NCBI RefSeq assembly: GCF_030028105.1
Contig: NC_092398.1
Location: forward strand, 16,744,182-16,808,181
Direction: 5' to 3'
DNA: 64,000 nucleotides
Origin: Mobula birostris
Taxonomy: Eukaryota
In this document: positions 6,013 to 58,071 of the stretch, piece by piece
How the letters are laid out: the number at the start of each line of letters is the position of its first letter
Numbering within the stretch: the first letter of the stretch is position 1
Program-made: the position numbers and the translations under genes
The notes under the pieces: generated by a model
What the model was told of the DNA's origin: nothing
The model's database searches: none
The model's input: the letters and a program-made list of their open reading frames with translations, nothing else

Positions 6013-6082
6013 ATGGGATATCCAGCAATATTTTACATAGCCAGTACCTACTATCCTGTACTTGCAGCGGTTGGTATTCCTG
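6013..6082 (+). CDS. GPR139-like GPCR copy 1, exon 1 (MGYPAIFYIASTYYPVLAAVGIP+G); CDS join(6013..6082,10276..11174), 322 aa
   Basis: ATG in gcaATGG context, 23 codons +1 nt, then a G|GTAAG donor. It encodes the N-terminus and first half of TM1 (YYPVLAAVGIP) and has the same length and phase in all three units. It splices in frame to exon 2 (G+TT=Val, VNLTAI). Confidence 0.9.
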
Positions 6083-6154
6083 GTAAGAAATCGATTTGGC
6101 TAGTATTTCTTTGAATAATCTTATCTGTTACAATTGTATGCAGTACACCTCTCC

Positions 6155-8030
6155 GGTATAGGATCTTAGCGATTGTAGGGATGACTTACAGCGGATTGAA
6201 AAGCTTGAGCATATAAACATTAAGAAAGTGGATTTGCGAAAACATTTGGAAAACATCAAGTTAGATATGTCCTCGGGACCGGATGAAATGTACCAGGCTA
6301 CTGTGGGAGGCGAAGGAGGAGATTGCTGAGACTCTGGCAATGAACTTTGCATCATCAATGGGGATGGGTGAACTTCCAGAAGATTGGAGGGTTGCGAATG
6401 TATTTCCGTTATACAAGAGAGGGGGTAGAGATAGCCCATGAAATTATACACCAATGAGTCTTACTTCAGTGGTTGGTAAGTTTATGGAAAAGATCCTGAG
6501 AGGCAGGGTTTATGAACATTTGGAGAGGCGTAATATGTTTAGGAATAGTCAACATGACTTTGTCAAAGTCAGGTCGTGCCTTACGAGCCTGATTGAATTT
6601 TTTGAGGATGTGACTAAACACATTGATGAAGATAGAGCAATAGATGTAGTGTATATGGATTTGATACATTCGATAAGGTACCTATTCAAGGCTTATTGCG
6701 AAAGTAAGGAGGCATGGGATCCAAGTAGATATTGCTTTGAAGATATGGCTTGACTGTCATAATCTGGATGGAAGACAGTGACCAATGGTGAGCCTCAGGG
6801 ATTTGTTCTGGGACCCCTTTTTCGTGACTTTTGTAAATGATCTGGATGAGGAACTGGAGGGATGTGTTATTAAATTTGCTGATGGCACAAAGGTTGGGGG
6901 TGTTGTGGATAGTGTGGAGTGCTGCCAGAAGTTTCAGCGGGAGATAGATATGATGTAAAACTGGGCTGAGAAGTCGCCGATGGAGTTCAACCCAGATAAG
7001 TATAAGTTTCACACACAAAAAGTGCTGGTGAACGCTGCAGGCCAGGCAGCATCTATAGGAAGAAGCACTATCGACGTTTCAGGCCGAGACCCTTCGTCAG
7101 GACTAACCGAAAGAAGAGATAGTGAGAGATTGAAAGTGGGAGGGGGAGGGGGAGATCCGAAATGATAGGAGAAGGCAGGAGGGGGAGGGATGCAGCTAAG
7201 ATCGGGAAAGTTGATTGGTAAAAGGGATACGAGGCTGGAGAAGCGAGAGGATCTCGGGCCGAGATGCCGAGGGAGAAAGAAAGGGGAGGGGGGCAAACCC
7301 AGAGGATGGGCAAGGAGTTATAGTGAGAGGGACAGAGGGAGAAAAAAATCGTGTTTTCGTTTTTAAGTGTAAGGTTGATGATTTTGGTAGGTCAAATATG
7401 ATGGCAGAATATAGTATTAATGGTAGCACTCTTGGCTGTGTGGAGGATCAGACAGATCTTTGGGTTCCAATTCCATAGGACACTCAAAGTTGCTGCGGAG
7501 TTGACTCTGTGGTTAAGAAGACATACGATCGATTGGCCCTCAGCAACCGTGGGATTGAGTAAGAGCCGAAAGGTAATGTTACAGCTATATAGCACCCTGG
7601 TCAGACCCCACTTGGAGTACCAAGCTCGGTTCTGGCCACATCACTACAGGAAGCCTGAGCAAACTATAGAAATGGTGCAGAGGAGATTTAGAAGGATTGG
7701 CGATTTGCCTGAATTGGAGAACATGCATTGTGAGAATCGGTTGAGTGAACTCCTCCTTTTATCCTGGGAGCGGCGGAGGATGAGAGGTAACCTGCCAGAG
7801 GTGTAAAGTTTTTATACGCAGAGAGTGGTGAGTGCTTGCAATAGACTCCGGGAAACGGCGGTGGAAGCGGATACGACAGAGTCTTTAAAAGACTCCTGGA
7901 TAGGTATATGGAGTTTAGAAATATAGAGGGCTATGGGTAACCTTAGGTAACTTCTAAAGTAAGTATCTGTTGGGCACATCGTTATGACCGAAGGGTCTGT
8001 ATTGTGCTTTAAGTGTTCTATGTTTCTTTT
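6155..8030 (+). mobile_element. CR1 LINE ORF2 fragment in intron 1 of GPCR copy 1
   Basis: SLTSVVGKFMEKILRG..SCLTSLIEFFEDVT, KFADG, LVRPHLEY and a tail ttctatgttt. Absent from introns 2 and 3. Confidence 0.9.
7010..7350 (-). mobile_element. Penelope-like terminal repeat (pLTR) nested in CR1, with hammerhead-like motif at about 7066-7106
   Basis: Near-identical to the 3' terminus of the Penelope element at 51400-51750. Confidence 0.85.
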
Positions 8031-8057
8031 TTTTCAATATTATTACCGTAGAGTTCC

Positions 8058-8512
8058 TTCATATAACCATATAACAATTACAGTACGGAAGCAGGCCATC
8101 TCGGCCCTTCTAGTCCGTGCCGAGCTCTTACTCTCATCTAGTCCCACCGACCTGCACTCAGCCCATAACCCTCTATTCCTTTCCTGACCATATAGCTACC
8201 CAGTTTAACTTCAAATGAGAACATCGAACCTGCCTCAACCACTTCTGCTGGAAGCTCGTTCCACACAGCTACCACTCTCTGAGTAAAGAAGTCCCTCCTC
8301 ATGTTACCCCTAATATTTTGCCCTTTAACTCTCAGCTCATGTCCTCTTCTTTGAACTTCCCCCACTCTTAATGGAAAAAGCCTATCCACGTCAACTCTAT
8401 CTATCCGCCTCATAATTTTAATTACCGTTACCAAGTCCCCCCCACCCCAACCCACTACGCTCCAAAGAATAAGGACCCATCTTGCACAACCTTTCTCTGG
8501 AACTTAGGAAAT
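8058..8512 (-). mobile_element. CR1 LINE 3' end
   Basis: ORF 8138..8455(-) reads RGHELRVKG..FFTQRVVAVWNELP; tandem tail ccatataa. Confidence 0.85.
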
Positions 8513-9354
8513 GAAACATAAAATATAAAATATAAAACCTTGTTTTATTGTCTGATGCTTACATTCGTCTCAATAAAAATAAACTGTTTTATAACAAAGA
8601 AGGGAGCTGTGCTGTACGTGTTGGTACTCCTTCCAAAGGCGTTAGAGTTTATATTTATCGAATCCACATTTTCAGGCTAATTAACTAAACTTCCTTACGA
8701 ACATGACTATGAGCCCCTCGTGTCTTTGTATCACAGCCACTCTCTTTTGTTTCTCGCCATGGCTATTTTACACTCATGTTTCCTGCTGTTATTCAATTTG
8801 GTGTGTCCTAGTCTTTCGTGTTCCTGTTACTTCCATCAAATCAGCTTTCAGCTGTAAGACAATATAAATTAAACCACACAGCTGATCATTGATTACCTCC
8901 TAAAATTGTGCAGCCTGTTCTAAATGCGATGAAAGATTTTTTTTTTTGAAAGTTCGATGAAAGATTCCGCTTCATTCGTTTATTGGGTGCACTGTTGTTC
9001 GGTGCTCTGGTAGTAGATAAACGAAACTGAATGGTCCTATTTCTGTGTATTCCAATATTGTTCAAAAACAAAATGACACTGGCGGGCATGACGTTTCGGT
9101 TTAAGAAGATGACCTTTGAATTAACTGAATATGTACGTGCATTATTCCTTGACTTCAGCACTTGGATTTTCAATCTATTCTAATAACATACCATGCGGCG
9201 AACGTTCTTTCGCATCTTTATTTTGGATGCTGTTTTGTAAGCCATTGACATACTGGATGGTTGATCTTTGGTAATTCATAGATGAACAACATCAGAAGAC
9301 TCAGAATATTTCATCAAATATTGCTGCCCAATCCATATTTATCTCGGACGCCCG

Positions 9355-9600
9355 GAAGCTAAGCGTTGAGCTATTACAGCTCGGGGCGTTCCGGAGTTTT
9401 CTGTTCAATTCTGTCAGAAAGGTGTTTGTTCGTCCTCCGGTGACCGCAACTGTATCCTCCGCATACTCCGGTTTCCTCTCACATTCCAAACACATACTTG
9501 TTAAGAAGTTAATTGCTCATTACAAATTGTCCAGTGAATGGCGTGGGTTGAATCGAGGGTTGCTAGAAGGTCTGGTTTGAAGAACCGGAATTAATGAATT
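9355..9600 (+). mobile_element. V-SINE/HE1-like SINE, intronic (paralogs at about 26790-27000 and 56155-56400)
   Basis: Central domain ...gttc(g)tcctccggtgacc...tactccggtttcctctcacattccaaa...ttaattgctcattacaaattgtcc. Confidence 0.6.
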
Positions 9601-9796
9601 AAATACAAAGTTTAAAATTTACTTTGATTTCATAGCTGGAAATAACTTCGTCCCAAAATGTTGTCCTTTGGCAGTTTCTTCACTGCGCCTTGGAGCTAGA
9701 AGTAACACATTGCCCTCTTGTATCAATGTTTAGAATAGTGACTTTTCCCATGTATCTTCATTCCAATATTGAAACGAGTTACTGCTGGTTTTGAGC

Positions 9797-10140
9797 AACC
9801 AACATAAAAGATTCTGGTGGAATGCAGCAGGCCAGGCAACAGCTCTAGGAAGAGGTACAGTCGACGTTTCGGGCCGAGACCCTTCGTCAAGCCTAACTGG
9901 CAGAAGAGCTAGTAACAGATTTGAAAGTGGGAGGGGGAAGGGAAGATCCGAAATGATAGGAGAAGACAGGAGGGGGTGGGATGGAACCAAGAGCTGTACA
10001 GTTGATTGGCAAAAGGGATATGAGAAGATCATGGGACCGGAGGCCTAGGGAGAAAGAAAAGGGGGAGGGTGAAAAACCAGAGGATGGACAAGGGAGAGAG
10101 TGAGAGGGACAGAGGGAGAAAAAGGAGAGAGAGAAAAAAA
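9797..10140 (-). mobile_element. Penelope-like pLTR in intron 1 of GPCR copy 1
   Basis: Matches 51400-51750 in reverse orientation. The hammerhead core is mutated (TTGACGA). Confidence 0.85.
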
Positions 10141-10275
10141 ACTGCAGGCGGGATTTGTCAATGGGTGACGGGTTTCAACTACGTCAGCGCACTATCTTTA
10201 ATTGTACAGATGATATTTACGCGTGAAATAAGGGAATATTTGTAATTATTATTTTTCAAAATTTCATACCTTCAG

Positions 10276-11174
10276 TTAATTTAACGGCAATTTGGATACT
10301 GTCTCGTGGAAAATGCGGCCTTTCGAAATGCGTGACTCACTACCTGGTGGCCATGGCAGCAGCGGATCTGATGGTGGTCATAGTTGCTGTTATATTGCAA
10401 CCGATTAATAACATCTATTTATTTGCTCATTTCCTACTTATAACTCCAATATGCGCTGTAATAGATGTCCTCAGGTCGATAACAATGGACTGTTCCGTTT
10501 GGTTTACGGTGGCTTTCACTTCTGACCGCGGTATCGCCATCTGCTGTCAAGAGCTGCGGAAGCGGTACTGCACCGAGAGGGTGGCGACTGTGGTATTAGC
10601 GACTATAGTTGCGGTGAGCTGCGTGAGGTGTGTTCCATTCTACTTCGCAGTGGAGCCCTACGTTATAATCAACAACATCCCTTGGCGTTGCAAGCAATCA
10701 GCCGAATACTATACAGCAGCGCTGTGGAAAATATACGAAATATTGGACAGTGTCACTACACCGTTACTACCAATATGTATAATTCTGCTGTTCAATGCTC
10801 TAACCATCAGGCATATTACAGCGGCAAACAGAATCCGGCTGGGACTGCGTAAAAGCCGGGAGAATCAGAAGGATCCAGAGGTGGAAAGCAGGCGAAAATC
10901 AATTATTTGGCTCTTTGCTCTTTCAGCCAACTTCATCTTACTATGGATGCCCTACATCGTGCATTCTGTAAACTGGCAAACCGAAAATTTTTTCTATGTA
11001 AACAGGTCTTTGAGCAGCCCGATATATATTCTGCAACAATTTGGGTCTATGTTCAGATATCTCAGCATTTGTACCAACACGTGCATCTACGGACTGACAC
11101 AAAGAAAATTCAGAGAAGAACTGAAGAGTGGAGTGAAATATTTGTTCACATTGAACGGGGGGATCTATACTTGA
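10276..11174 (+). CDS. GPR139-like (probable GPCR 139/142 family) class A 7TM receptor copy 1, exon 2
   Basis: Acceptor tttcataccttcAG at 10274-10275. The 899-nt exon contains ORF 10332..11174 with TM2 AAADL, TM3 DCSVWFTVAFTSDRGIAICC, TM5 PLLP, TM6 LLWMP, TM7 TNTCIY and helix 8 TQRKFREE. The family call is from motif recognition, not a database search. Confidence 0.9.
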
Positions 11175-12159
11175 CAGGCGCACCTTACCGTACTTTCAAA
11201 CAATTGGTGTAATGTTGTATTTTATGAATGTGCCGCAGATAATTAGATTAACCTGTTGTCGGCAATTGGAATGGCTACTTTCCAGCTACTTTATGAAATC
11301 TATTTGTTTGCAGCAAGGTACATAAAATGCGCTGGTGATCGCTTAGTTCCATTATTGGACGTATTTGAGTATATTACAAATTTGATTCATAACATCCAAA
11401 TTTCAATCCCAATTTATCATTTGCATCAGTGCATATTTGCATTTCAAAAGATGTAGAAAGGGTACTTAAAAAGGCGTCAATAAATCCGAGATTTATGAAA
11501 GTTACCTTTTCCGGAAATAAAACAATGTCGAAGACTGTTGGAAAGATCAATGTAAGGTGAGCTATGGGTATTGAAATAGAAGAGAATTCGAGGCTGGATA
11601 TTACCATTCACGGTCGTATTGAATGTGAAACTGCTTCAGAAGTTGAACAATCTGTTTATACCGCCAATTTCTTTATCCTTTCATTCTAATTATCTATGAG
11701 ACCCGGAACGTACCGATTTGCAAAACAAGTTTGATGATGGGAACGATGAGCATGATAATAATAAATTCAAGTGTCATGTACCTCATGTATTTAAGAAAGG
11801 GACCAGTCAGTGATGTTTGTGATCTTCTACTGCTGTAGCACCTTCACTTTAAGGTCACGTCGTGTGTGCGTTCAGAAATACTCTTCCAGATAGCTCTGTT
11901 CTAATAAGGGACTCTTTGCGTTACTGTCCCCTCCCTGTCATCTTGAACCAGTCTGACTATTCTCCCTTAACGTTCTCACGATCAAAGCGTTTTCAGCCAC
12001 ACCACAGCTACACATTGGACGGATTTTTATGTGTCTCTTGTACCATTCTGTCCAAACTGTAGGTACTGCTGTCTGTGAAAATTACATGATATCTGCAGTT
12101 TCTGCGGTACTTCTGGCACCACGGTTGAACTTATTGTTATCATGGTAATCATTCCCATT

Positions 12160-15749: not shown

Positions 15750-16590
15750 AATCTGAGCAGCCGAGATGTCCGCAATGAAGCGTCGAACGACTGACACGGA
15801 GCTGGAGGCCTCTGCCCAATATCAGGAGGGACACTTCTGTCAATACAGGACCAGATTATTAACAAAAAAAACAAAGAAACAAACAATAAAGCTGCATCAC
15901 AATTGCACATTTAAAGACCTGCGAATTCAAGATGATAAATGCAAAATATGCCACTTAATACCTGAAAAAGTCCAATATATTATACGATCCTGCGTAATTT
16001 AACTGTATGTCATTGGTTACACCGACCAAATCAAGTGACAAACATCATTCATCAAAATCTTGCTTTAAGATACAAAGTCATAAAACAAATCATACCTTAT
16101 TATATATACAAACCAGAGCCAGGTTTAGAGTCAAACTCCTATAACTTATATTACGACCGATGGGTTGTTACAAATTGGACAATCCATTATAATCCCCCGG
16201 ATATAATAATGGAGGATAAATAAGCAACAACAACTTACTTAATTGATACAGCTATCACGATTACACATAATCTGCAGACATCAATAAGCAAAAACATCAG
16301 AAATATGCTGAACTAAAAGTAGATATTGAAAGACTTTGGAACGTGTACAGGGTAAATATTATTTCGATAGTATAATCTGCAGCTGATGTCATCCCAATGT
16401 CACTACACAATAGCATTAAACAATTTGAGCTGGACTGAATTATCGATGTAAATCTTCAGAAAGTCACTATGCTAAAGAACACTACGAATTTCCGAAAGGT
16501 CCTAGCAATTGACAAATGAGCGTCCTTCGCCGTGCTCAGACATCAGGTTACATCAGTTTCGGTTGAGAGAAGAAAAAGTTTTGAATAATT
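15750..16590 (+). mobile_element. R4/Dong-like retrotransposon 3' part (Zn-knuckle + restriction-like endonuclease)
   Basis: DDKCKIC..E.VQYIIRSC; NIIHQNLAL; LYYDR..T..TIHYNPPDIIMEDK..YLID (PD-D motif). Confidence 0.7.
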
Positions 16591-16591
16591 C

Positions 16592-16624
<33 letters not shown>

Positions 16625-16625
16625 G
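16591..16625 (+). repeat. (AGAT)n microsatellite (paralog at 44093-44140)
   Basis: Direct reading. Confidence 0.95.
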
Positions 16626-17154
16626 GATGGATAGACAAATCTGATTACGTACATGAATTTCAAAGGCTTTGAAAGTGATGCTATATTTTATGGAATCAGT
16701 TCAGTGTTCAGGTGCACGGATAACATTACTCACCTCAAAATGATAGAGGAAGCAATACCAAGAATAAAAGGGTAATATAACATAGGATACAGTCGGTGGT
16801 ACTGAATCGTCGCTCTTATAATGCTGCAAGCTAAATTTATCGCCGTATATGAAGATTTGGTTAACTGTGATGAATTAGTCTGCTTCGGTTCGCAATGTCA
16901 AAACCTGTTCAAAATATATTGATTGAGAGATTAGCAACTGCGGAGATTATGGCACATGTTGTACAAGGGTTATGCCACTTTAATTTCAGTGGGTTCACGA
17001 TGCTGCCTAGCGGCTAATGAATCGTCAACGCCTCCCGTGTAGAGATCGTGCTAGTTTTTTGATAATTCAGTTGTTCAATGTTTCGATGGTTCTATAGTTC
17101 AGTGATTCATTTGGTTCAATTTAATGTCTCAAAATGTATACAGTATACAACCTG

Positions 17155-18452
17155 CCTTCAATAATGCCAGTCCCTGATTGTTTCTTGTTCCTGTTGGTCA
17201 TCTCTGCAATCTCCCTGTGCATATCCCTTGAATGATGCAACCTGTCCATGGTCTCTATCTTTTCACACCGTTTGATAAACCATTGTTCTTTAAACTTTGG
17301 ACAATCTGCTCTTATTTGTTGGTCCAATTCCTTGTACTTAGATGTGTCCTTATTGTGCTTCCTTCTCTGTTCCATGAGCTTCAGAATTAGATACGTCATC
17401 CAGGCTTGTTTAGCTACTCGCCCTCTTTTGGGAGACATTCTTCAGCTGCAATTTGAATACAGTCCTTCAGTTTTGACCACATGTTATCTGGTGTCTGCTC
17501 CATGTCTTCTACTCTCTGTCCTTTAAACCTATTTTGTACCGCTATAGAAAATATTTCACTATAGTCGCTCGCCTTCAGTAAGTCCATATCCAGCCTGGCT
17601 TTCTTAATCTTTACTCAGAGGTAATCTTCAGGGTGTTGAACAATGAAGCCGGTGTCCAAATTGGTGGAGTGACGGTGAACAACTTGAGGTATGCAGATGA
17701 TTCAGTGTTGTTAGCTGAAACCGAGGGCGAGTTACTCAGAATAGTAGATAAGATAAATGCTGAAGGTGAACGATTTGGTATGAAAATAAATGCTACAAAG
17801 ACGACGATGATGGTGGTATCAAGAAAGAAAGAAGTTCCCAAAATCTGTATCAAAATTAAGGGCCTAGACATAGAGCAAGTCAAGAAGTTTGGGACAGATG
17901 GTCACGGAGGATGGGAAATGTGATACAGAAATTAGACGAAGAATTGAGATTGCAAGATCAACGTTCTGGAGCCTCAGTGACGTGCTGTGTGGCAAGAGGT
18001 TGGACTTTGGGCTGCGTTGTAGAATTTGGAAAAGCTACGTCTGGAGCAGTTTGTTGTATGGAGTCGAATCGTGGACCTTATGGAAGGAAGTGCAACGGCG
18101 ACTGGAGGCATTTGAAATGTGGTGATTAACGAGAATGCAGAAAAATAGATGGGTGATGAAGGTCAGTAATATGGAAGTGTTGAAGAGAGCGAGTAGAGAA
18201 AAGGAGTTACTGAAGAATGTGCAGAAAAGGAAGCTGGAATATGCCGGGCACTTGTTAAGAGGTAGTGGACTCTAGAAATTGTTAGTGGAAGGGATGATAG
18301 AAAGAAAGAGGGAAAGAGAAAGGCAGCGAACCACTTGGTACGATAATGTGAGGCAATGGACTGAGTTGAGTTACGCTAAGGCCAGAAAAAGAGCGCAATA
18401 TCGATGACGATTGAGATGCATAGCCGCCAATCACCCATTGACTGACTGACTG
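17155..18452 (+). mobile_element. RTE-clade LINE with inverted 5' segment; TSD atacaacctg
   Basis: + strand 17605-18450 is the RT C-terminal half (NLYSE..NNLRYADDSVLLAE..GMKINATKT..LLYGVESWTL..RLEAFEMW) with a (TGAC)n tail. 17155-17610 encodes the EN-RT linker on the - strand. TSD at 17145-17154 and 18453-18462. Confidence 0.88.
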
Positions 18453-18471
18453 ATACAACCTGAAATCCTTA

Positions 18472-19092
18472 CGCGGCCGTTCCGAATGAATATCGTATGT
18501 GTTAAGTAGGGGGGCGTGCACAATCCGGATTTGATGGAGACAGTCGTGAGAAGCACAGGGGAACACTTGGAGTAACTTCTGAAATACCTGCTTTGCTGTC
18601 GCTGCTACTGTACGATCGAGAATCTCCGGAGAGGAAGGCCCCAAATCCTCGGGTTTGCCTATTGCCTGTTGCCGGGGTCGGTGTCGAAGCGCTCGGCAGA
18701 GATGGTGCCCGGTGCTCGGTGTTGGAGATTTCGTCGGAGGCTCGGAGTTTTCGGATGGACTCGGAGTCGGACTGTGGTCGGATGCTTCCAGTATGCTGCA
18801 TTGGCAAGTTGGCGGCGCTGGAGTTTCACCGTCTGCGTGAGACTATGGGACTTCCGAGAGACTTTGAGACTTTTACCGTGCCAAAGCCCGTTCTCATCAA
18901 ATTAGGTATTGCTTTGTAGTGTGGTAACTATATGTTATAATTATATGTTTTTGCGTTGGTTAGTTTTTAAATCGGTTTGTCATTTGTTTCTGTGATATCA
19001 TTCTGGAAAATGTTTTATCATTTCTTAATGCATGCATTACTAAATGACAATAAAAGAGGACTGTGTGTCCTCATAATCTAATCTAATCTAAT
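18472..19092 (+). mobile_element. Non-autonomous retroposon or LINE 3' UTR with (AATCT)n tail
   Basis: Second copy in reverse orientation at about 34140-34742. Tail aatctaatctaatc preceded by aataaa. Confidence 0.7.
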
Positions 19093-19366
19093 CATCGTAC
19101 ACATTTGAGGAAAAACATTTTCACCCAGAGACTGGTGGATATATGGAATGGCCTCCCCAGAAAGCTGTGGAGGCTAAGTCTCTGGATGCTTTCAAAAAAG
19201 AGATGGATAGAGCTCTTAAAGATAGCGGAATCAAAGGTTATGGGGATAGGACAGGAACTGGATACTGACCGTGGATGATCAGCCATGATCACAGTGAATG
19301 GCGGTGCTGGCTGGAAGGGCCTAATGGCCTACCCCTGCACCTATTGTCTATTGCCTATTGTCTATA
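19093..19366 (+). mobile_element. CR1 3' end
   Basis: ttttcacccagagactggtggatatatggaatgg...gatcagccatgatc...(ctattgt)n tail. Confidence 0.85.
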
Positions 19367-25495: not shown

Positions 25496-25559
25496 TCCAC
25501 TCAAATATCTTGTCATAGAAATAGAACTTGCAACAGATATTTTCAGAGTCTGATACAAA

Positions 25560-45587: not shown

Positions 45588-46822
45588 GTATGTAACCAAG
45601 AAGATAGACGCGGGAGATCCAGTGGGTGTGGTGTAACTTGACTTTCAGAAGACATTTGATAAGGTACCACATAGGAGATTGGTGGGTAAGATCAGAGCTC
45701 GTGGTATTGGGGGGAGGATATTGACATGGATAGAAAACTGGTTGGCAGATAGAAAGCAACGGGTAGCAGTGAATAGGTGTTTCTCGAAACGGCAGGTGGT
45801 AACTAGTGAGGTGCCACAGGGTTCGGTATTGGGACCACAGCTGTTTAGGATTTAGGTCAATGATTTAGAGGAAGGCATTGTGAATAACATCAGCAAGTTT
45901 GCTGATGATACTGAGCTGGGTGGCAGTGTGACATGTGATGAGGATGTTAGGAGAATTCAGGCTGACTTAGATTGGCTGGGTGAGTGGGCAGAAACTTGGC
46001 AGATGGCGTTTAATGTGAATAAGTGTGAGGTTATTCACTTTGGGAGCAAGAACAGGACAGGTTATTATCTGAACGGTGTGGAGTTAAGTAAGGGAGAAAT
46101 ACAAAGAGATTTAGGAGCACTTGTTCATCAGTCTCTGAAGGTGAATGAGCAAGTGCAGCAGGCAGTGAAGAAGGCTAATGGAATGTTGGCCTTTATTACA
46201 AAGGAAATTGAGTACAAGAGCAAGGAAATCCTTTTGCATTTGTACAGGGCCCTGGTGAGACCACACCTGGAGTATTGTGTGCAGTTTTGGTCTCCAGGGT
46301 TAAGGAAGGACATCCTGGCTATGGAGGAGTTGCAGCGTAGGTTCACTAGGTTAATTCCTGGGATGTCCGGACTGTCTTACGCAGAGAGGTTAGACAGACT
46401 GGGCTTGTACACGCTGGAATTAAGGAGATTGAGGGGGAATCTGATTGAGACATATAAGATTATTAAGGAATTGGACAAGATAGAAGCAGGAAATATGTTC
46501 CAGATGCTGGGAGAGTCCAGTAACAGAGAGCATGGTTTAAGAATAAGGGGTAGGTCATTTAGGACAGAGTTGAGGAGGAATTTCTTCTCCCAGAGAGTTG
46601 TGGAGGTGTGGAACGCGCTGCCTCAGAAGGCAGTGGAGGCCAATTCTCCGGATGCTTTCAGGAAGGAGTTAGATAGGTATCTTATGGATAGGGGAATCGA
46701 GGGTTATGGGGATAAGACAGGAACCGGGTATTGATAGTAAATGATCAGCCATGTTCTCAGAATAGCGGTGCAGGCCCGAATGGTCTACTTCTGCACCTAT
46801 TGTCTATTGTCTATTGTCTACT
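45588..46822 (+). mobile_element. Young 5'-truncated CR1 LINE; TSD gtcat
   Basis: 284-aa ORF with SKFADDTEL and a (ctattgt)n tail. Empty sites at about 1310 and 20235. Confidence 0.95.
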
Positions 46823-49767
46823 GTCATTGTAAAGGGAAAAGGGGTTAGTAAATTCACCATCCCGGTTGGAATGTGTTGGTCACAGATTGCTGCAGAGACC
46901 TGGTATTTCACGAGCATCGGTATTTCGTGTCAGAGATTAGGGACAAATCAGGATATGTCAGCCGTTTCCGGCAAATCAAACAGCACCCGTGAAGCAAGAA
47001 ACAGAGTTGATTCGGTAGGTCCCTCGCTAACATTTTGAAAAGAACACACGTCTTATTTTGGTCCTTGACATATTACTATTGTTATTACCGCATGTTTTTT
47101 TTTTCTAAACAGCCAAGGACTGTTTTAAAAACTACGTCACGTCTGCCGTGCTCTTGTTTCTCCCCTTCTCCTATGGATACTCGTCTGGACCTATTCTACA
47201 CCGATTTTGATATTCTAAGTACAATCGTCAACACAGAAATTCAAACAAACTTCAGTTGTTGGAAATTTGAAGAACGAGCGGGAAAAAAAAACTTGAAACA
47301 CTCACCATAACATACGGTACTGATGGAAAGAGAAATGGCGTTCATGCAGCAAAGAGATCTCCTAAACTTTGCCTCTCGTAATGTTACCATCAGAAAATAT
47401 AGTTTATTTTATTTTGGTGAGAAAGTTGTGTTTGTTATTTACTTCGTTTCATACGAAAATTTATTATACAGATTACTCACACACTTAACTGTCGATCTTG
47501 AGCTGTCATCCGGCGCCTGAAATGCGTTTGATGTTAAAATGCTCCATAAACCTAACTTGTTGTTTTCTAAAATACTCGTCGTCAACTTTCAGTCCCGAGA
47601 CTTTGATACCTATTAAGTTTTACAAAGCCTTTAATACCTATTATTCTTAATTTTTTTCATATTTGTTTTCCAAAAATAAAAATACCTATTACTGACCTGT
47701 GACTGGGCTTTATGATTAGAGCTTTTCTCTGCTCCCACTTGGATACCGAATGCGTATTTCTTGCACTCTAATCACCCAGCGTTTCAACTCAAATATTCAA
47801 AGTTCCATGTAAATTTCATTCTCAGAGTATTTATATGTCACCACTTACATCCAGGAGATTCATTTCCCGCAGGAATGCTCAGTAAATCTATGGAATTTTA
47901 ACGATATCACAATCAATGGAAGATCAACCGGAGTGCAGAAGACAACTAACGGTGTAAATGCAAATATAAATAAATAACAATAAATAACGAGTAATTTAAA
48001 AATCGAGATAAAGATTCCTTACATGAGATAATTTATTATGCATCTCACTGGCTGGGCAAGTTGAATAGTAATCCATTTTTTTTTCAAGAGCCTGATAGTT
48101 GAGCGGTCGTAAATGTTCTTGAATCTGCCGGTGCGAGTCCTGAGCTCTTGTACCTTCTCTCTGGTGGCGGCAGCGAGAAAGCAGATGGCCTGGTTGACGA
48201 AGATCTATGATGATGGTTGCTCTGTTCCTGCAGCAGCGTTCCATGTGGAAGTGCTCACTAGTTGGTGGGGGGAGTGGAGCTTATCCCGATGTGTACTCGG
48301 GCGAATCCATTGCATTTTGCATGATATCTGTTCAAAGACATTGGTACATCCGGATGCAGCCAGTCAAATAAAAACTTCCACAACACATCTATAATAATCT
48401 ATAGAAATTTGTCGAAATTTTTGATGTCATGCCGAATTTCCGCAGATTTCTGACGAAATAGACGCTCTCCAGTGCTTTCCTCGCAATTGCGTTAATGCGT
48501 ACTGTCCAGGACAGGCCCTTTGAAATAGTAACACCAATAAACTAAAATCACCTCAAATCATGCAATTAGGCTAACGCATGGGCCTCTGGTTCCCTCTCCC
48601 CAAAGTCTACAATCAGTTTCTTAAATGCTCAGGTGGTACACCTAAAATCTAACCCATTTTCCTTATAATAGTAGTCTGCCAGTCTGTCTATCATGCCCGG
48701 ATGTGTTAATAGCGATTAAGTGTTGTTAAAAAAAAATAATATCTCCTCTTTTAACTGGCAATAGAATACGCACTCGGATTAGCTTAATTTGCCCATCTAC
48801 ATTGATCTTACTGATTATAAGAGAGAGGAATTAATGTTTTCAAGTACCAAACTAAAGTCACCTGGATGTTAAGACGTATGGGAGGCCTGGTTAAAATAAA
48901 ATACAACAATAATACGTCTAAACGTAATAAACAGTGATTAAACGCAAACAACAGGAATTCTGCAAATGCCGGAAATTCAAGCACAGTGATGAAATAAGCT
49001 TATGCTTTCCATAGTTAATCTATTGCTTTTAAAAAAGCATAGATTGATTTAGACTGTTTTTTTTAAATCTTTTTGTGTCGCAGGTATTTCATGCCTCATC
49101 ACTGCTATGTTAAATTATTTTTGATAGCCTCGCAGTTACTCAATAGATAATGTCGCTGCTTTCATGCTGAGCTATTATTCTATTTGTTGCTCAGTCTTCG
49201 ATATGCCTCGACACCCAGGGTATCTTAAACTTGCCGGCCATGTTTTTCATTCTTATTTAAACACACCGGACATAATCGTTCGTTGTTTTACTTTTCAATC
49301 ATTCACACTAGACCGATTTCGACCTACCTCCAAGTAGCTCTCCCATTCTTGTCTTGTCCGATCTCTGATTATGACTTTCATTCCACATTTCCTGAATCCG
49401 CGACCTTAATTTTTCATCAATCCTTTCTCCCTTCCATGGCAACCTTCAAAGTTTCAGTGTTCATATCACTTCCAAAAAAATACATGCCTACTCATGTTTC
49501 ATTGCATACTCAGCAAAGAAGTAGTTCAATTTGCATTTACTTCATGAAACGACCTTCTTGGATGCACTTTAAATTTCCTATGGGTACATGTATTCCATGC
49601 TACAAAGCAAACAATGCTGTGTTCAATTCCCATCATACCGTCACTCAATTACTCCTTGCTTCTAGTCGCATAGACATCGCGCCATCTCCCAGAATTAATA
49701 TAGTGAAAGTCATTGTTGTCCTTTCTTAGGTCAAGGAAGGATCTCAGATATCCGCAGTAACACCACT

Positions 49768-51751
49768 TCCCGTTTCTACCTCCTACCCAAGATCCACAAA
49801 CCTGCCTGTCCTGGCAGATCTATTGTCTCAGCTTGCTCCTGCCCCACCGAACTCATTTCTGCATACCTCGACACGATTTTATCCCCCACTGTTTAATCCC
49901 TTCCTACCTATGTTTGTGACACTTCTCACGCTCTTAAACTTTTCGATGATGTGAAGTTCCCTGGCCCCCACCGCTTTATTTTCACCATGGATGTCCAGTC
50001 CCTATATACTTCCATCCCGCATCAGGAAGGTCTCAAACCTCTCCACTTCTTTTTGGATTCCAGACCTAACCAATTCCCCTCTACCACCACTCTGCTCCGT
50101 CTAGCGGAATTAGTCCTTACTCTTAATAATTTCTCCTTTGGTTCCTCCCACTTCCTCCAAACTAAAGGTATAGCTATGGCACCCGTATGGGTCCTAGCTA
50201 TGCCTGCCTTTTTGTTGACTTTGTGGAATAATCTATGTTCCAAACTTATTCTGATATCTGCCCCCAACTTTTCCTTCGCTACATCGCCGACTGCATTGGC
50301 GCTATTTCCTGCACGCATGCTGAGCTCGTTGACTTCATTAACTTTGCCTCCAACTTTCACCCTGCCCTCAAGTTTACCTGGTCCATTTCAGACACCTCCC
50401 TCCCCTTTCTAGATCTTTCTGTCTCTATCTCTGGAGACAGCTTATCTACTGATGTCTACTAGAAGCCTACTGACTCTCACAGCTATCGGGACTATCCCTC
50501 TACTCACTCTGTCTCTTGCAAAAATGCCACCCCCTTCTCGCAATTCCTCCGTCTCCGCTGCATCTGCTCTCAGGTTGAGGCTTTTCATTCCAGGACGAAG
50601 GAGGTGTCCTCACTTTTTTAAAGAAAGGGGCTTCCCTTCCTCCACCATCAACTCTGCTCTCAAACGAATATCCCCAATTTCACACACATCTGCTCTCACT
50701 CCATCCTCCCGCCACCCCACTAGGAATAAGGTTCTGCTTGTCCTCACCTACCACCCCACCAGCCTCCGGGTCCAACATATTATTCTCCGTAACTTCCACC
50801 ACCTCCAACGGGATCCCACCACTAAGCACATCTTCCCCTCCCCGCCCCCCCCCCCGCCGGTTTAGGCAGGGATCGCTCCCTCCTGGACTCCCTTGTACAT
50901 TCGTCCCCCACCCCCTCCCCACTGATCTCCCTCCTCGCACTTACCCTTGTAAGCGGAACAAGTGCTACACATGCCCTTACACTTCCTCCCTTACCACTAT
51001 TCAGGGCCCCAGACAGTCCTTCCAGGTGAGGCCACACTTCACCTGTGAGTCGGCTGGGGTGAAATACTGCGTCCGGTGCTCCCGTTGTGGCCTTCTATAT
51101 ATTGACGAGACCCAACGCAGACTGGGAGATCGTTTCGCTGAACACCTACGCCCTGTCCGCCACAGAAAGCAGCATCTCCCAGTGGCCACTCATTTTAATT
51201 CCACGTCCCATTCCCATTCTGATACGTCTATCCACGGCCTCCTCGACTGTAAAGATGAAGCCACACTTAGGTTGGAGGAACAACACCTTACATTCCGTCT
51301 GGGTAGCCTCTAACCTGATGGCATGAACACTGCCTTTTCAAACTTCCGTTAATCACCCACCTCCCCTCGTACCCCATCTGTTATTTATTTCTATACACAC
51401 ATTCTTTCTCTCTCTCACTCTCTCTCCGTCTTCTCCCTCTGTCCCTCTCACTATACCCCTTTACCATCCTCTGGGTTCCCCCCACCCTTTCTTTCTCCCT
51501 GGGCCTCCTGCCTCATGAACCTCTCATATACCTTTTGCCAATCAACTGTCTAGCTCTTGGCTCCATCCCTCCCCCTCTTGTCTTCTCCTATCATTTGGGA
51601 TCTCCCCCTCCCCCTCCCACTTTCAAGTCTCTTACTAGCTCTTCTTTCAGTTAGTCCTGACGAAGGGTCTCGGCCCGAAACGTCGACTGTACCTCTTCCT
51701 AAAGATGCTGCCTGGCCTGCTGCGTTCACCAGCAACTTTGATGTGTGTTGC
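49768..51751 (+). mobile_element. Penelope-like element, 5' truncated (RT + GIY-YIG + terminal repeat), frameshifted
   Basis: RT motifs FTMDVQSLYTSIP, GIAM and LRYIAD (YIDD mutated); GIY-YIG region VKYCVRCSRCGLLYIDETQRRLGDRFAEH. Empty site in unit 2 at about 23105. Confidence 0.93.
51652..51689 (+). ncRNA. Minimal type-I hammerhead ribozyme motif at Penelope 3' terminus
   Basis: uAGUC-CUGACGA-A-GGG-ucucgg-CCC-GAAA-C-GUC^-GACUg, intact core. Confidence 0.72.
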
Positions 51752-52465
51752 CAGTGTTTATATATCTGATTCGGACTGAGTTTGAACAGTAACTCCCTTT
51801 TCTTTGTGCAGAGTGGCAGAAGCATTTCGAATGTTGGATAATACAGAATGAAGGAACTGTACAAAAGGCTGGTTTACAGAGAAGTAACCGGTTCACCTTT
51901 TCCCAGTGAAATTATTCTAAGATATTTACTGTACATTTATAAGCTATAATCCTGATGTTCGCGGTGTGGTTTAAATGGTGACGCGTAATAAATTATATTC
52001 TGGTTATACGTACAGGAATAAGTGGCAAGTAAAATCTTATCAATTGCAGCGAAGAAACTGAAGGAGGCGAGAACCGACTGCAGAAATAGCGAAAGAAATA
52101 AAATCTCTGCATTGTAGGCAGTAAAATATGTGCAAAGCACACCAGACCCGAAGATGTAACCAGAATGGGATGGTGAAGATTTTCGATTGCATCGGCCCTT
52201 TGGCTCTGACAAGTGGGCTATGTACTATTTGTGCTATGATACTATGAAGGATTGACATTATGTCAGCCGCAAAGGGCGGCCAAATGTGTGTAGGTTATCA
52301 TGGGCGATTCCAAATATTAAGTCAAGGGCATTTTGTTTTGTGGAAATGGATGGGGCTACAGAAAGACTTAGACATATTGGTAGAATGGGCAAAGAAGCGC
52401 TTCGGTAGAAGTAGTGAAAGTCTTGACTATTTCCCAAATAGTCAGAAAATACAAAGAACCCAGAC

Positions 52466-52468
<3 letters not shown>

Positions 52469-52511
<43 letters not shown>
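52469..52511 (+). repeat. (CA)n microsatellite
   Basis: Direct reading. Confidence 0.95.
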
Positions 52512-52514
<3 letters not shown>

Positions 52515-53304
52515 GGAGCTTCTGCAGGAATTCTGAAAAGTTAATTTGAAGACTGAGTTTGTGGTGGGGAACACAAACGCAATTTTATCATTCAGTTCAA
52601 GAGGACTAGAATATAAAGCACTGGTGAGCAAGATTTGGCCACTTATTTTAGAAAGGATATGCTGTAACTATAAAGGGTTCAAATGAAGTTTACGTATATG
52701 ATTACAGGATTGAAAAACTTGTCATGTGCAGGGCATCTGATGGCTCTGGGTTTGTATTCACCAGAATGCAGAATAATTAAAACCTATCTAATGGTAAAAG
52801 GCTTTAGGAGAGTGGATGTGGAGAGGATGTTTCTATTAATGGGACAGTCAAAGATCAGAAAACACCGTCTCAAAATAGAGCGTCCTCCTTTGATGACGGG
52901 AAATTTCTTTAGCCAAACGGTAGTGATTCTGTGAAACTCCTTGCCACAGGTAGCTGTGGAGGCCAATTCCTTATGTATATTTAAGGAAGAAGTTGATAGA
53001 TTATTGATTGGTCAGGGAATTAACGGGTAATGGGAGAAGACAGGAGATTGGGCTGAGAGGAAAATTGGATCAAACATGATGAAACGCCGGAGTAGACTCG
53101 ATGGGCCAAATGGCCTAATTCTGCTTCAATATCTTTTGGAGTTATGGTCTTATGGTCAGGGGTTTTGATGTTTTAGAAAACATACAACTAAGCAAACATT
53201 AACCATATTAATGCACAAATCCTTCCTACAATCAGTAACAGGACAAAAACCACTCGAAAAGACAAGACGGCGGCATGCACCGTTCCCTATCAGAACGCTA
53301 TTCT

Positions 53305-53566
53305 TTCTTTTTTTGACGTGTGCGTGCAGGAGGATGTCTTTTTCATGCCTTTACAAAACGCGGAGCGAGAGAGAGACTGTGTGGCGCGCCGCTCCGCCAT
53401 TTCGCAGTATTTTTCCCTTTATTTTACGAGGTCGAGTTGTGATCTGGACACTCAGCCCGGCACTGATGAAAAGCGTACTCAGGAGCGGCCCCGACTGGGT
53501 TCGACCAGGGAACCTTCGGTCCGGAGTTCGGCGCTGATCTCTTTGCGCCACCTGCCGGCCCATACC
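53305..53566 (-). mobile_element. tRNA-derived SINE flanked by a 48-bp direct duplication
   Basis: The minus strand starts ggccggcaggtggcgcaaagag (A-box-like), has ggtcgaaccc (B-box-like) and an A-rich tail. Repeats at 53257-53304 and 53567-53614. Confidence 0.65.
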
Positions 53567-53679
53567 AAAAGACAAGACGGCGGCGTGCATCGGTCTCTAC
53601 CAGAACGCTATTCTATGCCAAAGTTATGTTCTGTTGCTTTGTATGGTGAGTCGACGTGCCGAGCAGAATCTGATAAATG

Positions 53680-54865
53680 CGAAACGAGAGTAAATTTGCA
53701 GATGCCTGAAATCCGAGCAACACACACAAAATGCTGAATTAACTCAGCAGGCCAGGCAGCATCCATGGAAAAATGTAGAGTCGACGTTTCGGACCGAAAC
53801 CCTTCGGCGGGTCTGGAGAACAAAAAACTGACGATTAGCTTTGAAAGATGGGAGGGGAGGAGAGAGATACGGCAGACAATAGGTGAAACTTGGAGGGGGA
53901 GGAATGAAACAAACATCAAAGAGATTGATAGGTGAAAGAGACAGAAGGCCATGGAATAAAGAAGATCGGAGGGGTGAGGAGCACCAGAGAGAGGCGATGG
54001 GCGGGCACGGAGATAAAATGAAAGAGGGTCAAGGGGATGGGAATTGGTGAGCGCGGGGGGGGGGGTGCAGGCATTACTGGATATTTGAGAAATCGATATT
54101 CATGCCACAAGTTGGAGGCTACCTAAACGGAATATAACCGAAGTGTGGCCTTATCCCGACAGTGCAGGTGGCCATGGATGGACATACAGGAATGCGAATT
54201 GTAAGTGGAATTTAAAAGGGTGACCACTGAAAGATCTTACTTGTTCTGGCGGACGGAGCGTAACTGCTTGGCGAAGCGGTGTCCCAATCTCCGTCGACAC
54301 TCATCGATATACAAGTAGCCACAACGGAGCACCGAGCACAGTATATGACCCCAACAGACTGACAGGTGAAGTGTCACCCCAGCTGGAAGGACTGTTTGAG
54401 GCCATGAATAGTACTGAGGGAAGAAGAGTGGAGGCAGGTGAAGTACTCGTTCTGCTTGCAAGAATAAGTGCCAGGAGTGAGATCAATGGGGAGGGACGAA
54501 TAGAGAAGACAACAGCGTAGGGAACAATCCCTCAGGAAAGCAGAAAATGAGGATGCGGGTGCTGGGGTAACGTGGAGGGGAAAGAATTGTTTGTTGGTGG
54601 AATCCAGTTGGAGGTGATGGAAGTTTCGACAAAATGAGTGCAGGATGCATAGGCTGGTGGAGTGTAGGTGTGGACAGGAGGGACCCTATCTCTGGTAGCG
54701 AGGCGGGGGGAATGGGCTAAGAGCAGACTTCCGTGAAATGGAAGAGATGCAGTTGAGGGCAGCGTTGATGATGGAGGAAGGGAAGCCCCTTTCTTTGAAA
54801 AATGAATGAAAAGCCTCATCTTGAGAGCAGCTGCGGCGGGGACGCAGGAATTGAGAGAAGTTCCC
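53680..54865 (-). mobile_element. Penelope-like element, ancestral insertion upstream of GPCR copy 3
   Basis: CGYLYIDECRRRLGHRFAKQLRSV and FSQFLRPRRSCSQDEAFH segments. Confidence 0.88.
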
Positions 54866-54927
54866 CACTCAAATATCTTGTCACAAAAATAGAACTTGCA
54901 AAACATACTGTCAGAGGCTGACGCAAA

Positions 54928-55138
54928 TGTCCCTCGAGGAACGAAATGTGATTCACAGTGACACATTGAATAATTATGCTTTCAGTGAATGGATTTGTTC
55001 ATTCGGATGTAACTGATGCCACTGAGGACTAATTAGTTCAGGTGATTTTCTTTCTGCAGTATAAGAGATTGGTGTATTAATTTCCTACTTATTGGGTAGT
55101 TTGGAGGTTGAGTTCACATAGTTGCTGCGCAGACAGCA
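54928..55138 (+). promoter_or_regulatory. Putative proximal promoter of GPCR copy 3
   Basis: TCCCTCGAGG 54930, cTAATTAg 55030, TATAAG 55060. Confidence 0.38.
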
Positions 55139-58071
55139 ATGGGTTATCCGGCAATATTTTACACAGCCAGTAACTACTATCCTGTACTTGTAGCAGTTGG
55201 TGTTCTTGGTAAGAAATCGATCTGCCTATTATTTATTTAAATAATTTTATCTGTTACAATTGTTTGCAGTGCACTTATATTGTTACCGTAGATTTTCCTG
55301 AAGAAGAATATATAACGTTGTTTTATTGTCTGATGCTTATATTCGTATCAATAAAATTAACCTGTTCTATAACAAAGAAGGGAGCAGTCCTGCACGTGTT
55401 GATGCTCCCTCCAAAGTCGTTAGAGCATATATATATTGAATCAATATTTTCAGGCCAGTTAACTAATCTTCCTTACGGAAGTGGCTATGAGTCCCTCGTG
55501 TCTTTGTATCACAACCACTCTTTTTTCCTGTTGCCTCTCGCCAAGGCCCTGTTAAACCCATGTCTCCACCTGTGAGGTTAATTAAGTGTCTTCCACTCTG
55601 TCATATCCCCGTTATTTCCACTAAATCAGCTGTCATCTGTAAAATAAAGTAAATCAATCGCTATGTGACCAAACTACTTAGCTGATCATTGATTACCTCT
55701 TGAAATTGTGCAACCTGTTCTAAATGCGAGTAAGTTCGATGAAAGCTTCCGTTTCATCCGTTAATTCTGGGCATTACTGTTCGGTACTGTGGTAGGAGAT
55801 AAACAAAACTGAATGGTCCTATGTCTATATATTCCAATAAAGTTAAAAAAACAAAATGGCTATGGTTGGCGTGGCGTTTCGGTTTAAGGAAATGACCTAT
55901 GAATTAACCGAATAAATAAGGGTATATTCCTTGACTTCAGCACTTGTTCTTCCAATCCATTGTAATAACATATCATACGACAAACTTCTCTGTTATCTTT
56001 ACTTTGGATACTTATATAATCTCTTCAGAAAAGCTGTTTTGTAAACCATTGACATATTGGCTAGGAGACTTCGGTAATTCTTAGAGGAACAAGATCATGA
56101 GAGTCAGAATATTTGTAAATGATTGCTACCTAACCGATATTTATCTCGGACGCCACGGTCGCTACAGCTCGGGACGTTCCAGAGTTTCTAGTTCCATTCC
56201 ATCTCTAGGGTGTTTGTAGGTTCTCCCTTTGACCGCTACGCATTCCTCTAGGTACTCCGGTTTCCTCCCACATTCTAAAGACATACTTGTTACTTGGTCA
56301 TTGTAAATTGTTCTGTGATTGACTAGGGTTAAGTGAAGGTTTCCTGGAATGTCTGGTTCGAAGAACCGGAAGAACTTATTCAGAGGTGTATCTCTAAATA
56401 AATTAAGTAAGTAAAATTTTAAAAAAAAATCTTTGTTTCCTTCAGCTGGAAATAACTTTGTCCTTAAAAGTTGTCCTTCGGCTGTTTCTTCACTGTGTCT
56501 TGGCGCTAAAGGTGCCAAAATGCCCTCTTGTATCAATGGTCAGAACAACGATATTTCCCATGGATATTCATTCCAATAATGAAGCGAGTTCCTGCTAATT
56601 TTGAGGCCGTTTATTTAACATTGATTTCAATTTGCTGTGGATTTTGAATGAGCAATTAATTTCTGTTATGGAGATTTCAGCGGGAGAGTTATACTCAGCA
56701 CCGACAACTCACCGTAATCCTGTGTTCGTCTAGATCCACATGTCCCCAAATTTTAATGTTGGACATGCGCCGCTATATAAAGTGGTCAGTTAGCGGCGAC
56801 GCAGCCTCCAGCTTCTAAGAGTGAAGCTTTGCTTTGAATCTAAGAAGCCGTGCAGTCGATCTTTTCCCTGGTCTCCAAATTCCTCTCCTCAAGGCATGAA
56901 TGGCAAATGAACAGAATAACAGTAAAATTTTTAAATATATTTAGTTTAAGGAGAAAATTACTGAAGTGTTTCTACTGCACATTTCAACATCCAGTCTTCC
57001 TGCTCAGGAGTGCTGTTCTGACGGTGATTCATAAACAGTTAAGTAAACTGCAGACTGGATTTGTCTATGCGTGACGGGTTGCAAGCAGCGCATTATCTTT
57101 AGTTGTGCAGATATTTAGGCGTGAAATATGGGCATGCTTGGAATCAGTAACCTTTATGTTTCATTCTTTTAGTGAACTTAACGGCAATTATGATCCTGTC
57201 TCGTGGAAAATGCGGTCTCTCCAAATGCGTGACTCGCTACCTGGTGGCCATGGCGGCGGCAGAGCTGATGGTGGTCATAGCTGCTGTTATATTGCAGCAG
57301 ATTAATAACATATATTTATTTGCTCATTTCCTACTTATAACACCAATATGCGCTATAATAGATGTTCTCAGGACGATAACAATGGACTATTCCGTTTGGT
57401 TTACGGTTGCTTTCCCTTCTGACCGTGGTGTCGCCATTTGCTGTCAGAAGCTGCGCAAGCGGTGCTGCACCGACAGAGCAGCGACTGTGGTGATAGCGTC
57501 TGTGGGTGCGGTGAGCTGTGTGAGGTGTGTTCCATTTTACTTCGCAGTGGAGCCCTTCGTTATAATTAACAACATCCCTTGACCTTGCATCCAATCGGCA
57601 GAATACTACACAAAATCGGTTTGGAAAATATACGCAATATTTGATAGTGTTACAACACCGTTATTGCCAATATGTATAATTCTGCTGTTCAATGCTCTAA
57701 CCATTAGACATATCGTAGTCGCAAACAGAGTCCGGCGGGAACTGCTGAACAGCCGCGAGAATCAGAAGGATACAGAGGTGGAAAGCCGACGAAAATCAGT
57801 GACATGGCTCTTCGCTCTTTCAGCCAACTTCATCTTACTGTGGATGCCCTACATCATACATTCTATAAAGTGGCAAGCGGAAATTTTTTTCTATATAGAC
57901 AGGTTTTTGAGCACCCCGCTATATATTCTGCAACAACTTGGGTTTATGTTCAGATATCTCAGCATTTGTACCAACACGTGCATCTACGGACTGACACAAA
58001 GAAAATTCAGGGAAGAACTGAAGAACGGTGTGAAATACCTATTCACATTGAACGGGCGGATCTGTAATTGA
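55139..58071 (+). pseudogene. GPR139-like GPCR copy 3, join(55139..55208,57173..58071), with a single premature stop TGA at 57580-57582 (Trp160*)
   Basis: Exon 1 is MGYPAIFYTASNYYPVLVAVGVL+G with a GTAAG donor; acceptor AG at 57171-57172. ORFs 57172..57582 and 57664..58071 are in the same frame. The paralogs have TGG where this copy has TGA. No frameshift. Confidence 0.82.

Follow-up and report, generated by a model that had tools for sequence, protein, structure and literature searches.

What kind of receptor is encoded by the tandem G protein-coupled receptor (GPCR) genes in a 64,000-nucleotide stretch of the Mobula birostris genome, and what might such an array sense? The stretch, called the window below and numbered from its first letter, spans positions 16,744,182 to 16,808,181 of the forward strand of contig NC_092398.1 (NCBI RefSeq assembly GCF_030028105.1). 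A first-pass annotation had read it as a slice of a lineage-expanded family of GPR139-like receptors and had suggested that the family senses amino acids or other small molecules. We place the window genes in a large class A family of cartilaginous fishes from the neighbourhood of GPR139 and GPR142. It is tempting to propose that this family works as a chemosensory-type repertoire with acidic pockets, a proposal whose chances we put somewhat below even.

The window contains three class A GPCR genes, W1, W2, and W3, all on the forward strand and each with an exon 1 of 70 nt and an exon 2 of 899 nt, giving a coding length of 969 nt and 322 codons. In all three, exon 1 extends from the ATG to a phase-1 GT (the donor is GTAAGA throughout), and exon 2 extends from an AG to the stop codon. 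The introns are 4,193 nt in W1, 1,877 nt in W2, and 1,964 nt in W3. The exons are as follows.

6013..6082, forward strand: W1 exon 1, 23 codons plus 1 nt beginning with ATG, encoding a very short N-terminus and transmembrane helix 1 (TM1)
10276..11174, forward strand: W1 exon 2, completing an intact 322-codon receptor gene
25774..25843, forward strand: W2 exon 1
27721..28619, forward strand: W2 exon 2, intact; the gene groups with Hypanus sabinus XP_059805654.1, 90% identical
55139..55208, forward strand: W3 exon 1
57173..58071, forward strand: W3 exon 2, with TGA at codon 160 (57580-57582) and the changes D2.50E, T3.47P, and Y121C

The reading frames of W1 and W2 are open throughout. Thus, the three collinear units with their two-exon, 322-codon receptors stand as first annotated, in coordinates and exon sizes alike, and so does the count of two intact genes and one with a single nonsense codon.

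How large is the family to which these genes belong? With W2 exon 2 as query, 1,763 of 2,966 candidates were matched as clusters at 90% identity, and with a chimaera member as query, 2,144 of 3,458; only the listed rows were identified, so both totals may take in some outsiders. Among the 120 best W2 matches listed, 115 are shark, ray, or skate proteins named “probable” or “putative GPR139” and five are unnamed, the best being from Hypanus sabinus, at 90% identity. Of the 120 best matches listed for the chimaera query, 119 are chondrichthyan, including five from Callorhinchus, and the remaining one is unnamed. The horn shark, Heterodontus francisci, has at least 77 clusters among the matches listed, 70 of them distinct below 90% core identity, and Heptranchias perlo has at least 44, with 39 distinct by the same measure. 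At E up to 1e-30, an exhaustive profile search returned 135 representatives at the 50% identity level. Twenty-eight of the 150 listed profile matches were looked up: 18 fall inside the family (17 chondrichthyan, one unnamed), and the ten weakest full-length matches are receptors of salamander, coelacanth, teleost, bichir, and caecilian, together with unnamed or unassigned ones. With dozens of copies per genome, the lineage expansion in cartilaginous fishes that had been surmised from the window is borne out; the existence of the family, its size, and its sister group, described below, are well supported. For the residue counts that follow, 291 of 294 rows were kept after the sequences from the chimaera query had been added.

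Members of the family also carry the automatic names vasopressin V2 receptor-like, capa receptor-like, angiotensin II type-2-like, GPR15-like, and galanin receptor 2a-like (rows P0180, P0155, P0319-P0321, and P0372). It follows that counting by name undercounts the family. The cluster P0150 joins a Chiloscyllium family model to a protein labelled with a RING-type domain and is probably a gene-prediction fusion.

In cartilaginous fishes, reported V2R clusters reach 65 genes at most (10.1101/2025.06.08.657570), and the catshark repertoire comprises 34 V2Rs and four to nine genes in each other family (PMC10116579; PMC11979771). Tandem clusters were mapped in two rays by the Squalomix preprint (10.1101/2025.06.08.657570). 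In a literature search and in term searches of elasmobranch genome papers, the expansion is undescribed, with the limit that some figures and supplements lay beyond reach (e.g., Squalomix Fig. 5A, Fig. S3, and Table S4) and may label the family; a term search of the available text of PMC11886862 gave no family terms. The sequences themselves are already in RefSeq under an automatic name and so are not new. Expanded tandem GPCR repertoires are likewise a known kind; a vertebrate repertoire from a branch neighbouring GPR139 appears to be new.

The class A assignment is firm. The Pfam 7tm_1 match scores 71.5 bits against a curated cut-off of 30.5, and at E up to 0.1 there is no other Pfam match apart from one sub-threshold DUF. 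The predicted model has a seven-helix fold (predicted local distance difference test score, pLDDT, 79) and aligns with peptide-type receptors at Z 24-26, with a root-mean-square deviation of 2.5-4.4 Å over 241-272 residues. W1 and W2 carry D2.50, C3.25, D/R at 3.49-3.50, W6.48, N7.49, and Y7.53; W3 has E2.50. Across the 291 family rows, D3.49 is present in 290, R3.50 in 289, and N7.49 and Y7.53 in 288. P7.50 is replaced by T, and W4.50 is absent. Membership in the OR, TAAR, V1R, V2R, and T2R families was rejected: 7tm_1 is the only Pfam assignment, and residue 3.32 is R in W1-W3, not Asp.

Within class A, the nearest characterised receptor by profile is GPR139. In a PDB search, a single window copy scores 28 bits against human GPR139, no better than against CCK-B or 5-HT2B. 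A 72-row family profile, on the other hand, places GPR139 first among solved structures (60.6 vs 47 bits), a profile of the wider clade does so more strongly (148.8 vs 99.4 bits), and salamander and coelacanth relatives used as queries likewise rank GPR139 first. Fold searches cannot rank families, and GPR139 is rank 42 by Foldseek and, by VIA-align, tied with the best match to within 1 Z unit. Structural alignment to GPR139 gives 21-22% identity. Since human and zebrafish GPR139 are 70% identical (PMC7318219), the window genes are not GPR139 orthologues; orthology was also rejected on the at least 70 members in one shark and on a Trp/Phe site that is not kept. Like the window genes, GPR139 has two exons (PMC7318219), and where the N-termini of relatives are mis-predicted, the break falls at the same column of TM1, which is only a hint of a common intron position. 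GPR142 turned up in none of the search results. The label “GPR139-like” thus survives as a statement about neighbourhood, seen by profile; as a statement of close kinship it does not, given the low identity, the ranking from a single copy, and a sister gene that lies elsewhere.

That sister gene is found in amphibians and sturgeon. Two trees were built, FastTree on 209 rows (217 of 304 passed the coverage filter, and eight near-duplicates were dropped) and IQ-TREE on 40 chosen rows; neither tree includes true GPR139 or GPR142. In the IQ-TREE result the family is one clade (90/99) whose sister is the amphibian and sturgeon group (100/99), and FastTree agrees. Coelacanth, teleost, and bichir receptors (P0226, P0236, P0250, P0274) are the next outgroups in the tree. 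These may be the GPR210 sets of PMC6504862, in which GPR210A and GPR210B, from coelacanth, gar, and some fishes, are described as orphan clades beside GPR139/142 with small gene sets and no human orthologue; a term search of the available text of that paper found no match for shark, Callorhinchus, or cartilag-.

When the salamander protein was used as query, 25 of 1,675 candidates matched: 20 amphibian clusters, one sturgeon cluster, and four chondrichthyan ones. The amphibian clusters are each named for a different species and are 66-74% identical to the query. No amniote or teleost match appeared in this search, to which a word filter was applied, so that absence from those groups is not implied. 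Examples of the sister gene, which likewise bears the automatic name “probable GPR139” although it is distinct from GPR139, are Pleurodeles XP_069092602.1 and Acipenser RXM35349.1 (rows P0216 and P0278-P0297). The amphibian gene is about 29% identical to W2 and has the same motif layout; the amphibian and sturgeon gene has N for D2.50 and S for N1.50.

The trees also bear on the age of the expansion. W2 pairs with the Hypanus gene (96/90), and therefore the duplications in the window are likely older than the split of these two species. The Callorhinchus row nests among elasmobranch rows, which suggests an expansion older than the chimaera split; a tree in which the 26 elasmobranch rows are held together was not rejected (approximately unbiased test, p-AU 0.0503).

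What has changed among so many copies? Site rates were compared between 178 family rows and 22 amphibian orthologue rows. At 32 positions, which we take to be the class A ligand pocket, the family evolves at 1.28 times its TM mean and the amphibian gene at 0.34 times. At 18 pocket positions from PMC5430874, by our own mapping, the values are 1.48 and 0.35. The intracellular half of the family proceeds at 0.61 times the TM mean, and the gap in rate between the family and the amphibian gene is wider in the pocket than elsewhere in the extracellular half (p 3e-4). Five-residue pocket strings in TM3 take 218 different forms in the 291 family rows vs one in 22 amphibian rows. Conservation reaches 90% or more at 69 columns in 290 paralogues. 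The pocket's net charge is negative in 254 family rows, neutral in 27, and positive in ten, with D or E at 3.37 in 271 and at 5.42 in 199. That is, a conserved intracellular half is joined to a variable, acidic extracellular half.

The amphibian pocket is of another kind. All 22 rows have F3.33, Q5.42, W6.48, N7.39, and K6.51, with a net charge of +2, and this is near the GPR139 site (F109, H187, W241, N271, R244). The Trp/Phe site of GPR139 consists of F3x33, H5x43, W6x48, N7x38, and R6x51 (PMC5430874). W6.48 is kept in 280 of the 291 family rows and a basic 6.51 in only seven; all four GPR139 determinants are kept in none, three are kept in six, and W1-W3 keep W6.48 only. On these residues, a repertoire for aromatic amino acids is unlikely.

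We suggest the following course of events. The ancestor would have been a single-copy sensor whose pocket resembled that of GPR139. Its descendants would have lost the basic 6.51, the residue to which the polar or charged backbone of the ligand binds in the GPR139 model, and gained acids at 3.37, 5.39, and 5.42, so that the ligands shifted from amino acids towards amines or basic peptides. The members would share one signalling output and differ in the acidic pocket. Cationic small molecules or short basic peptides are therefore the ligands that this course predicts. In a large clade of teleost TAARs, Asp5.42 makes the contact with the amine (PMC4695389), a likeness that is an analogy, not a test.

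Within the window itself, the copies have been under constraint. At a pairwise synonymous divergence (dS) of about 0.30, the ratio of nonsynonymous to synonymous divergence (dN/dS) among W1-W3 is 0.24-0.30, with bootstrap intervals of 0.16-0.44, showing purifying selection between the copies. In W3, codon 160 is TGA where W1 and W2 have TGG, the Trp of the family, and both D2.50 and Y121, altered in this gene, are at least 90% conserved across the 290 other family rows. Private changes (nonsynonymous/synonymous) number 23/21 in W3, 16/18 in W1, and 12.5/24.5 in W2. The W3 changes are still far from neutral, which argues for a late loss; W3 is likely a young pseudogene.

The three proteins differ at 73 of 322 positions overall and at four of the 32 pocket positions. 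They depart together from the family consensus at codons 106, 109, 235, and 283, carrying SDRG at the end of TM3 vs the usual FDRF, W6.36 (L in 99% of the family), and F7.41 (L in 95%). The few pocket differences and the common derived changes make W1-W3 near-redundant members of one ray subfamily. The Hypanus row P0001 has SDRG and F7.41 without W6.36, and SDRG also occurs in the Logan fragment P0245.

Several sequencing runs gave side observations on paralogues. One paralogue, with the same ten differences, is present in two runs (X1 and X5; matches around 10276-11500). Its X5 contig stops 206 letters before 10481, one base short of the exon-2 start, which fits a spliced/unspliced branch, a weak hint since the kind of run was guessed. 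In runs X1, X2, and X5, a few contigs of family members have depths of 363-877 and others of 4-7; such depth cannot rank genes and is a lead only. Four runs, also of guessed kind, gave only short paralogue pieces against W1 exon 2 (2, 11, 2, and 3 records), leaving most of that stretch uncovered; they carry no information on tissue or level and were used neither way. A look-up of RNA sources for W2 listed none.

The surrounding DNA records how the array arose. The units, about 16-20 kb each, are collinear over long non-coding blocks at about 70-83% identity, as follows.

1..12110, forward strand: duplication unit 1, extending past the window start; repeat insertions have made its intron longer
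15751..31566, forward strand: duplication unit 2, about 69-79% identical to unit 3, with which it is collinear
43269..62851, forward strand: duplication unit 3

Dead copies of several ages lie in and between them; they are described by TM helix, intracellular loop (ICL), and extracellular loop (ECL).

33598..33872, forward strand: relic A, TM5 and ICL3, then TM7 to the stop, with TM6-ECL3 missing; frameshifted
34992..35207, forward strand: relic B, ICL3-TM6-ECL3 and the start of TM7
44424..44590, forward strand: very old relic in unit 3, ICL2 to TM5; end coordinate approximate
16890..17060, forward strand: copy of the old relic in unit 2; approximate coordinates
110..280, forward strand: copy of the old relic in unit 1; approximate coordinates

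Matches to relics A and B have nhmmer E values of 9e-12, 1.5e-9, and 5e-18, and the relic profile score is 29.5 bits vs at most 4.9 on the reversed window. The two overlap in gene coordinates, pointing to a second copy or an internal duplication. The old relic scores 12.6 bits vs at most 1.9 in 300 codon shuffles and lies in a block common to all three units; since every unit has it, a dead paralogue was already inside the unit before its duplication. Within the window, a search for exon-1 relics found none besides exon 1 of the three genes. The heavily decayed fourth copy first reported is therefore real, but it is two relics, with an older one in each unit besides. Gene anatomy, segmental duplication, and several generations of relics are plain from these features, and tandem birth and death, with three units, a nonsense allele, and relics of several ages, describes the locus well. 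An assembly artefact was ruled out, as 11-12% of coding bases distinguish the copies, and their repeat insertions are not the same.

Repeats fill much of the remainder. RVT_1 (Pfam) matches were found in three of 13 open reading frame remnants scanned between units, two of them above the cut-off.

14649-15371, forward strand: broken RVT_1 remnant
61304-61996, reverse strand: broken RVT_1 remnant
60981-61484, reverse strand: broken RVT_1 remnant

A repeat of about 340 bp is present in many copies (e.g., 7010-7346, 9795-10141, 12728-13107, and 51382-51751), some interrupting the W1 intron, and its placement differs between units. We take the window repeats to be long and short interspersed nuclear elements (LINEs and SINEs). 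About 330-390 bp on the 3′ side of W3 are duplicated locally (58087-58571 and 58868-59252, 76% identity between copies).

What, then, is the family for? A chemosensory role is favoured by the scale of the family, its turnover, and the small known shark repertoire. It is the likeliest of three functional readings, with a probability approaching one half. The least certain part is the place of use, which would be a sensory epithelium: nose, taste buds, or solitary chemosensory cells of skin, gill, or gut. Several observations weigh against it. The family pocket, at 1.28, is not significantly faster than the remaining extracellular half, at 1.07 (p 0.29), so the signal is one of a variable outer half rather than of the pocket specifically. 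Any paralogue set with differing ligands, immune or endocrine, would contrast with orthologues in the same way. Sites are taken as independent in the p-values, 122 of the 178 family rows either lie close to the query or are copies from the window, and pocket positions were assigned by counting from conserved residues, with 3.37 possibly structural. The window copies show no local diversification of the pocket. Catshark olfactory neurons all appear to be microvillous (Go, TRPC2), with V2Rs robustly expressed there (PMC10116579), and the 50 most specific genes of the olfactory library include no GPCR, V2Rs being missing there too (PMC11979771). Larger elasmobranch genomes tend to have more tandem copies (10.1101/2025.06.08.657570).

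That last tendency, also seen as a scaling of tandem copy number with genome size in rays, would suit largely neutral drift in repeat-rich, duplication-prone genomes, with most copies redundant and decaying. The nearly identical pockets of W1-W3, the relics, and the abundance of presumed LINE remnants in the window fit such drift as well. Against it stand the low dN/dS at a dS of about 0.30, the separate Hypanus orthologue of W2 (96/90), subfamilies common to sharks and rays, the 69 conserved columns, and a concentration of change in the outer half; for the family as a whole drift is already unlikely, and we consider it very improbable. Alternatively, the family could sense metabolites, osmolytes, or peptides inside the body, whether in gut, kidney, rectal gland, gonad, or brain. 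This would enlarge the role of GPR139 and GPR142, which in brain, pancreas, and gut answer Trp and Phe (PMC7318219). All 22 amphibian rows of the sister gene have F3.33, W6.48, N7.39, and a basic 6.51; the family largely retains W6.48; and human GPR139 tolerated N271S, the residue found in both W1 and W2 (PMC6367278). Expression outside olfactory tissue is, moreover, frequent among shark OR and V2R genes (PMC11979771). Yet dozens of paralogues, 218 TM3 variants, and frequent pseudogenes are a poor fit to a fixed endogenous ligand, and with the full set of GPR139 determinants in 0/291 rows and a basic 6.51 in 7/291, internal sensing, its aromatic amino-acid version included, seems improbable.

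Tandem, lineage-specific copies with pseudogenes and a variable outer half would equally be the signature of an innate surveillance repertoire in leukocytes, mast-like cells, skin, or somatosensory neurons, detecting cationic peptides, microbial products, or irritants as MRGPRs and FPRs do. MRGPRX2 has an acidic pocket for cationic ligands. MAS1 and its relatives are absent from cartilaginous fishes (PMC8455134), which would leave the MRGPR niche open. Nevertheless, there is no sequence link to MRGPR or FPR, profile searches being led by GPR139, and we judge surveillance unlikely, if well worth keeping in view. Returning to the chemosensory proposal, its boldest form would make the family a fifth, unrecognised chemoreceptor family of chondrichthyans, larger than the V2R set and descended from one GPR139-neighbour gene through a flip from basic to acidic pocket, with a TAAR-like convergence on Asp5.42, and would thereby explain smell with few olfactory receptors. 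In that full form the idea is doubtful.

Whatever its function, a family that numbers at least 70 in a single shark contradicts the view of cartilaginous fishes as having a paucity of GPCRs (PMC8455134), and a misleading automatic name hides it. Cartilaginous fishes are described as smelling with a few dozen V2Rs (PMC10116579), and the family is a candidate answer to how sharks and rays cover odour space. Were its role immune or somatosensory, sharks would have in it a counterpart to the MRGPR system they lack. The unstudied receptor encoded by the amphibian sister gene has much of the GPR139 pocket and offers a natural control.

Among known systems, GPR139 (PDB 7vug, 9m42) resembles the family in being its best profile match, in its two-exon gene, in keeping W6.48, and in lacking a canonical NPxxY. 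The family differs in having dozens of copies, in the replacement of most F3.33, H5.43, N7.39, and R6.51 residues, and in a longer ECL2 with a conserved cysteine. The amphibian gene, unlike the family, has one cluster per species and a frozen, net-basic pocket nearer that of GPR139. The sister clade of GPR139/142 is protostome and includes FMRFamide-type receptors (PMC8557429), and the snail Lymnaea has about 450 FMRFamide-receptor-like genes, often in tandem (PMC11589774). These FMRFamide/MIP/sex-peptide-type expansions are large and tandem like that of the family, and Atlas neighbours have names of this type and partial Srw matches, but the expansions are independent of it, and their ligands are mostly unknown or neuropeptides. 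With the chemosensory repertoires of vertebrates the family has in common tandem clusters, lineage-specific expansion, pseudogenes, and a conserved inner and variable outer half, and the acid at 5.42 is as in the large clade of teleost TAARs. It differs from ORs, TAARs, V1Rs (ORAs), V2Rs (OlfCs), and T2Rs in having no family-level homology to them, a coding region in two exons, and, in the window copies, no Asp3.32.

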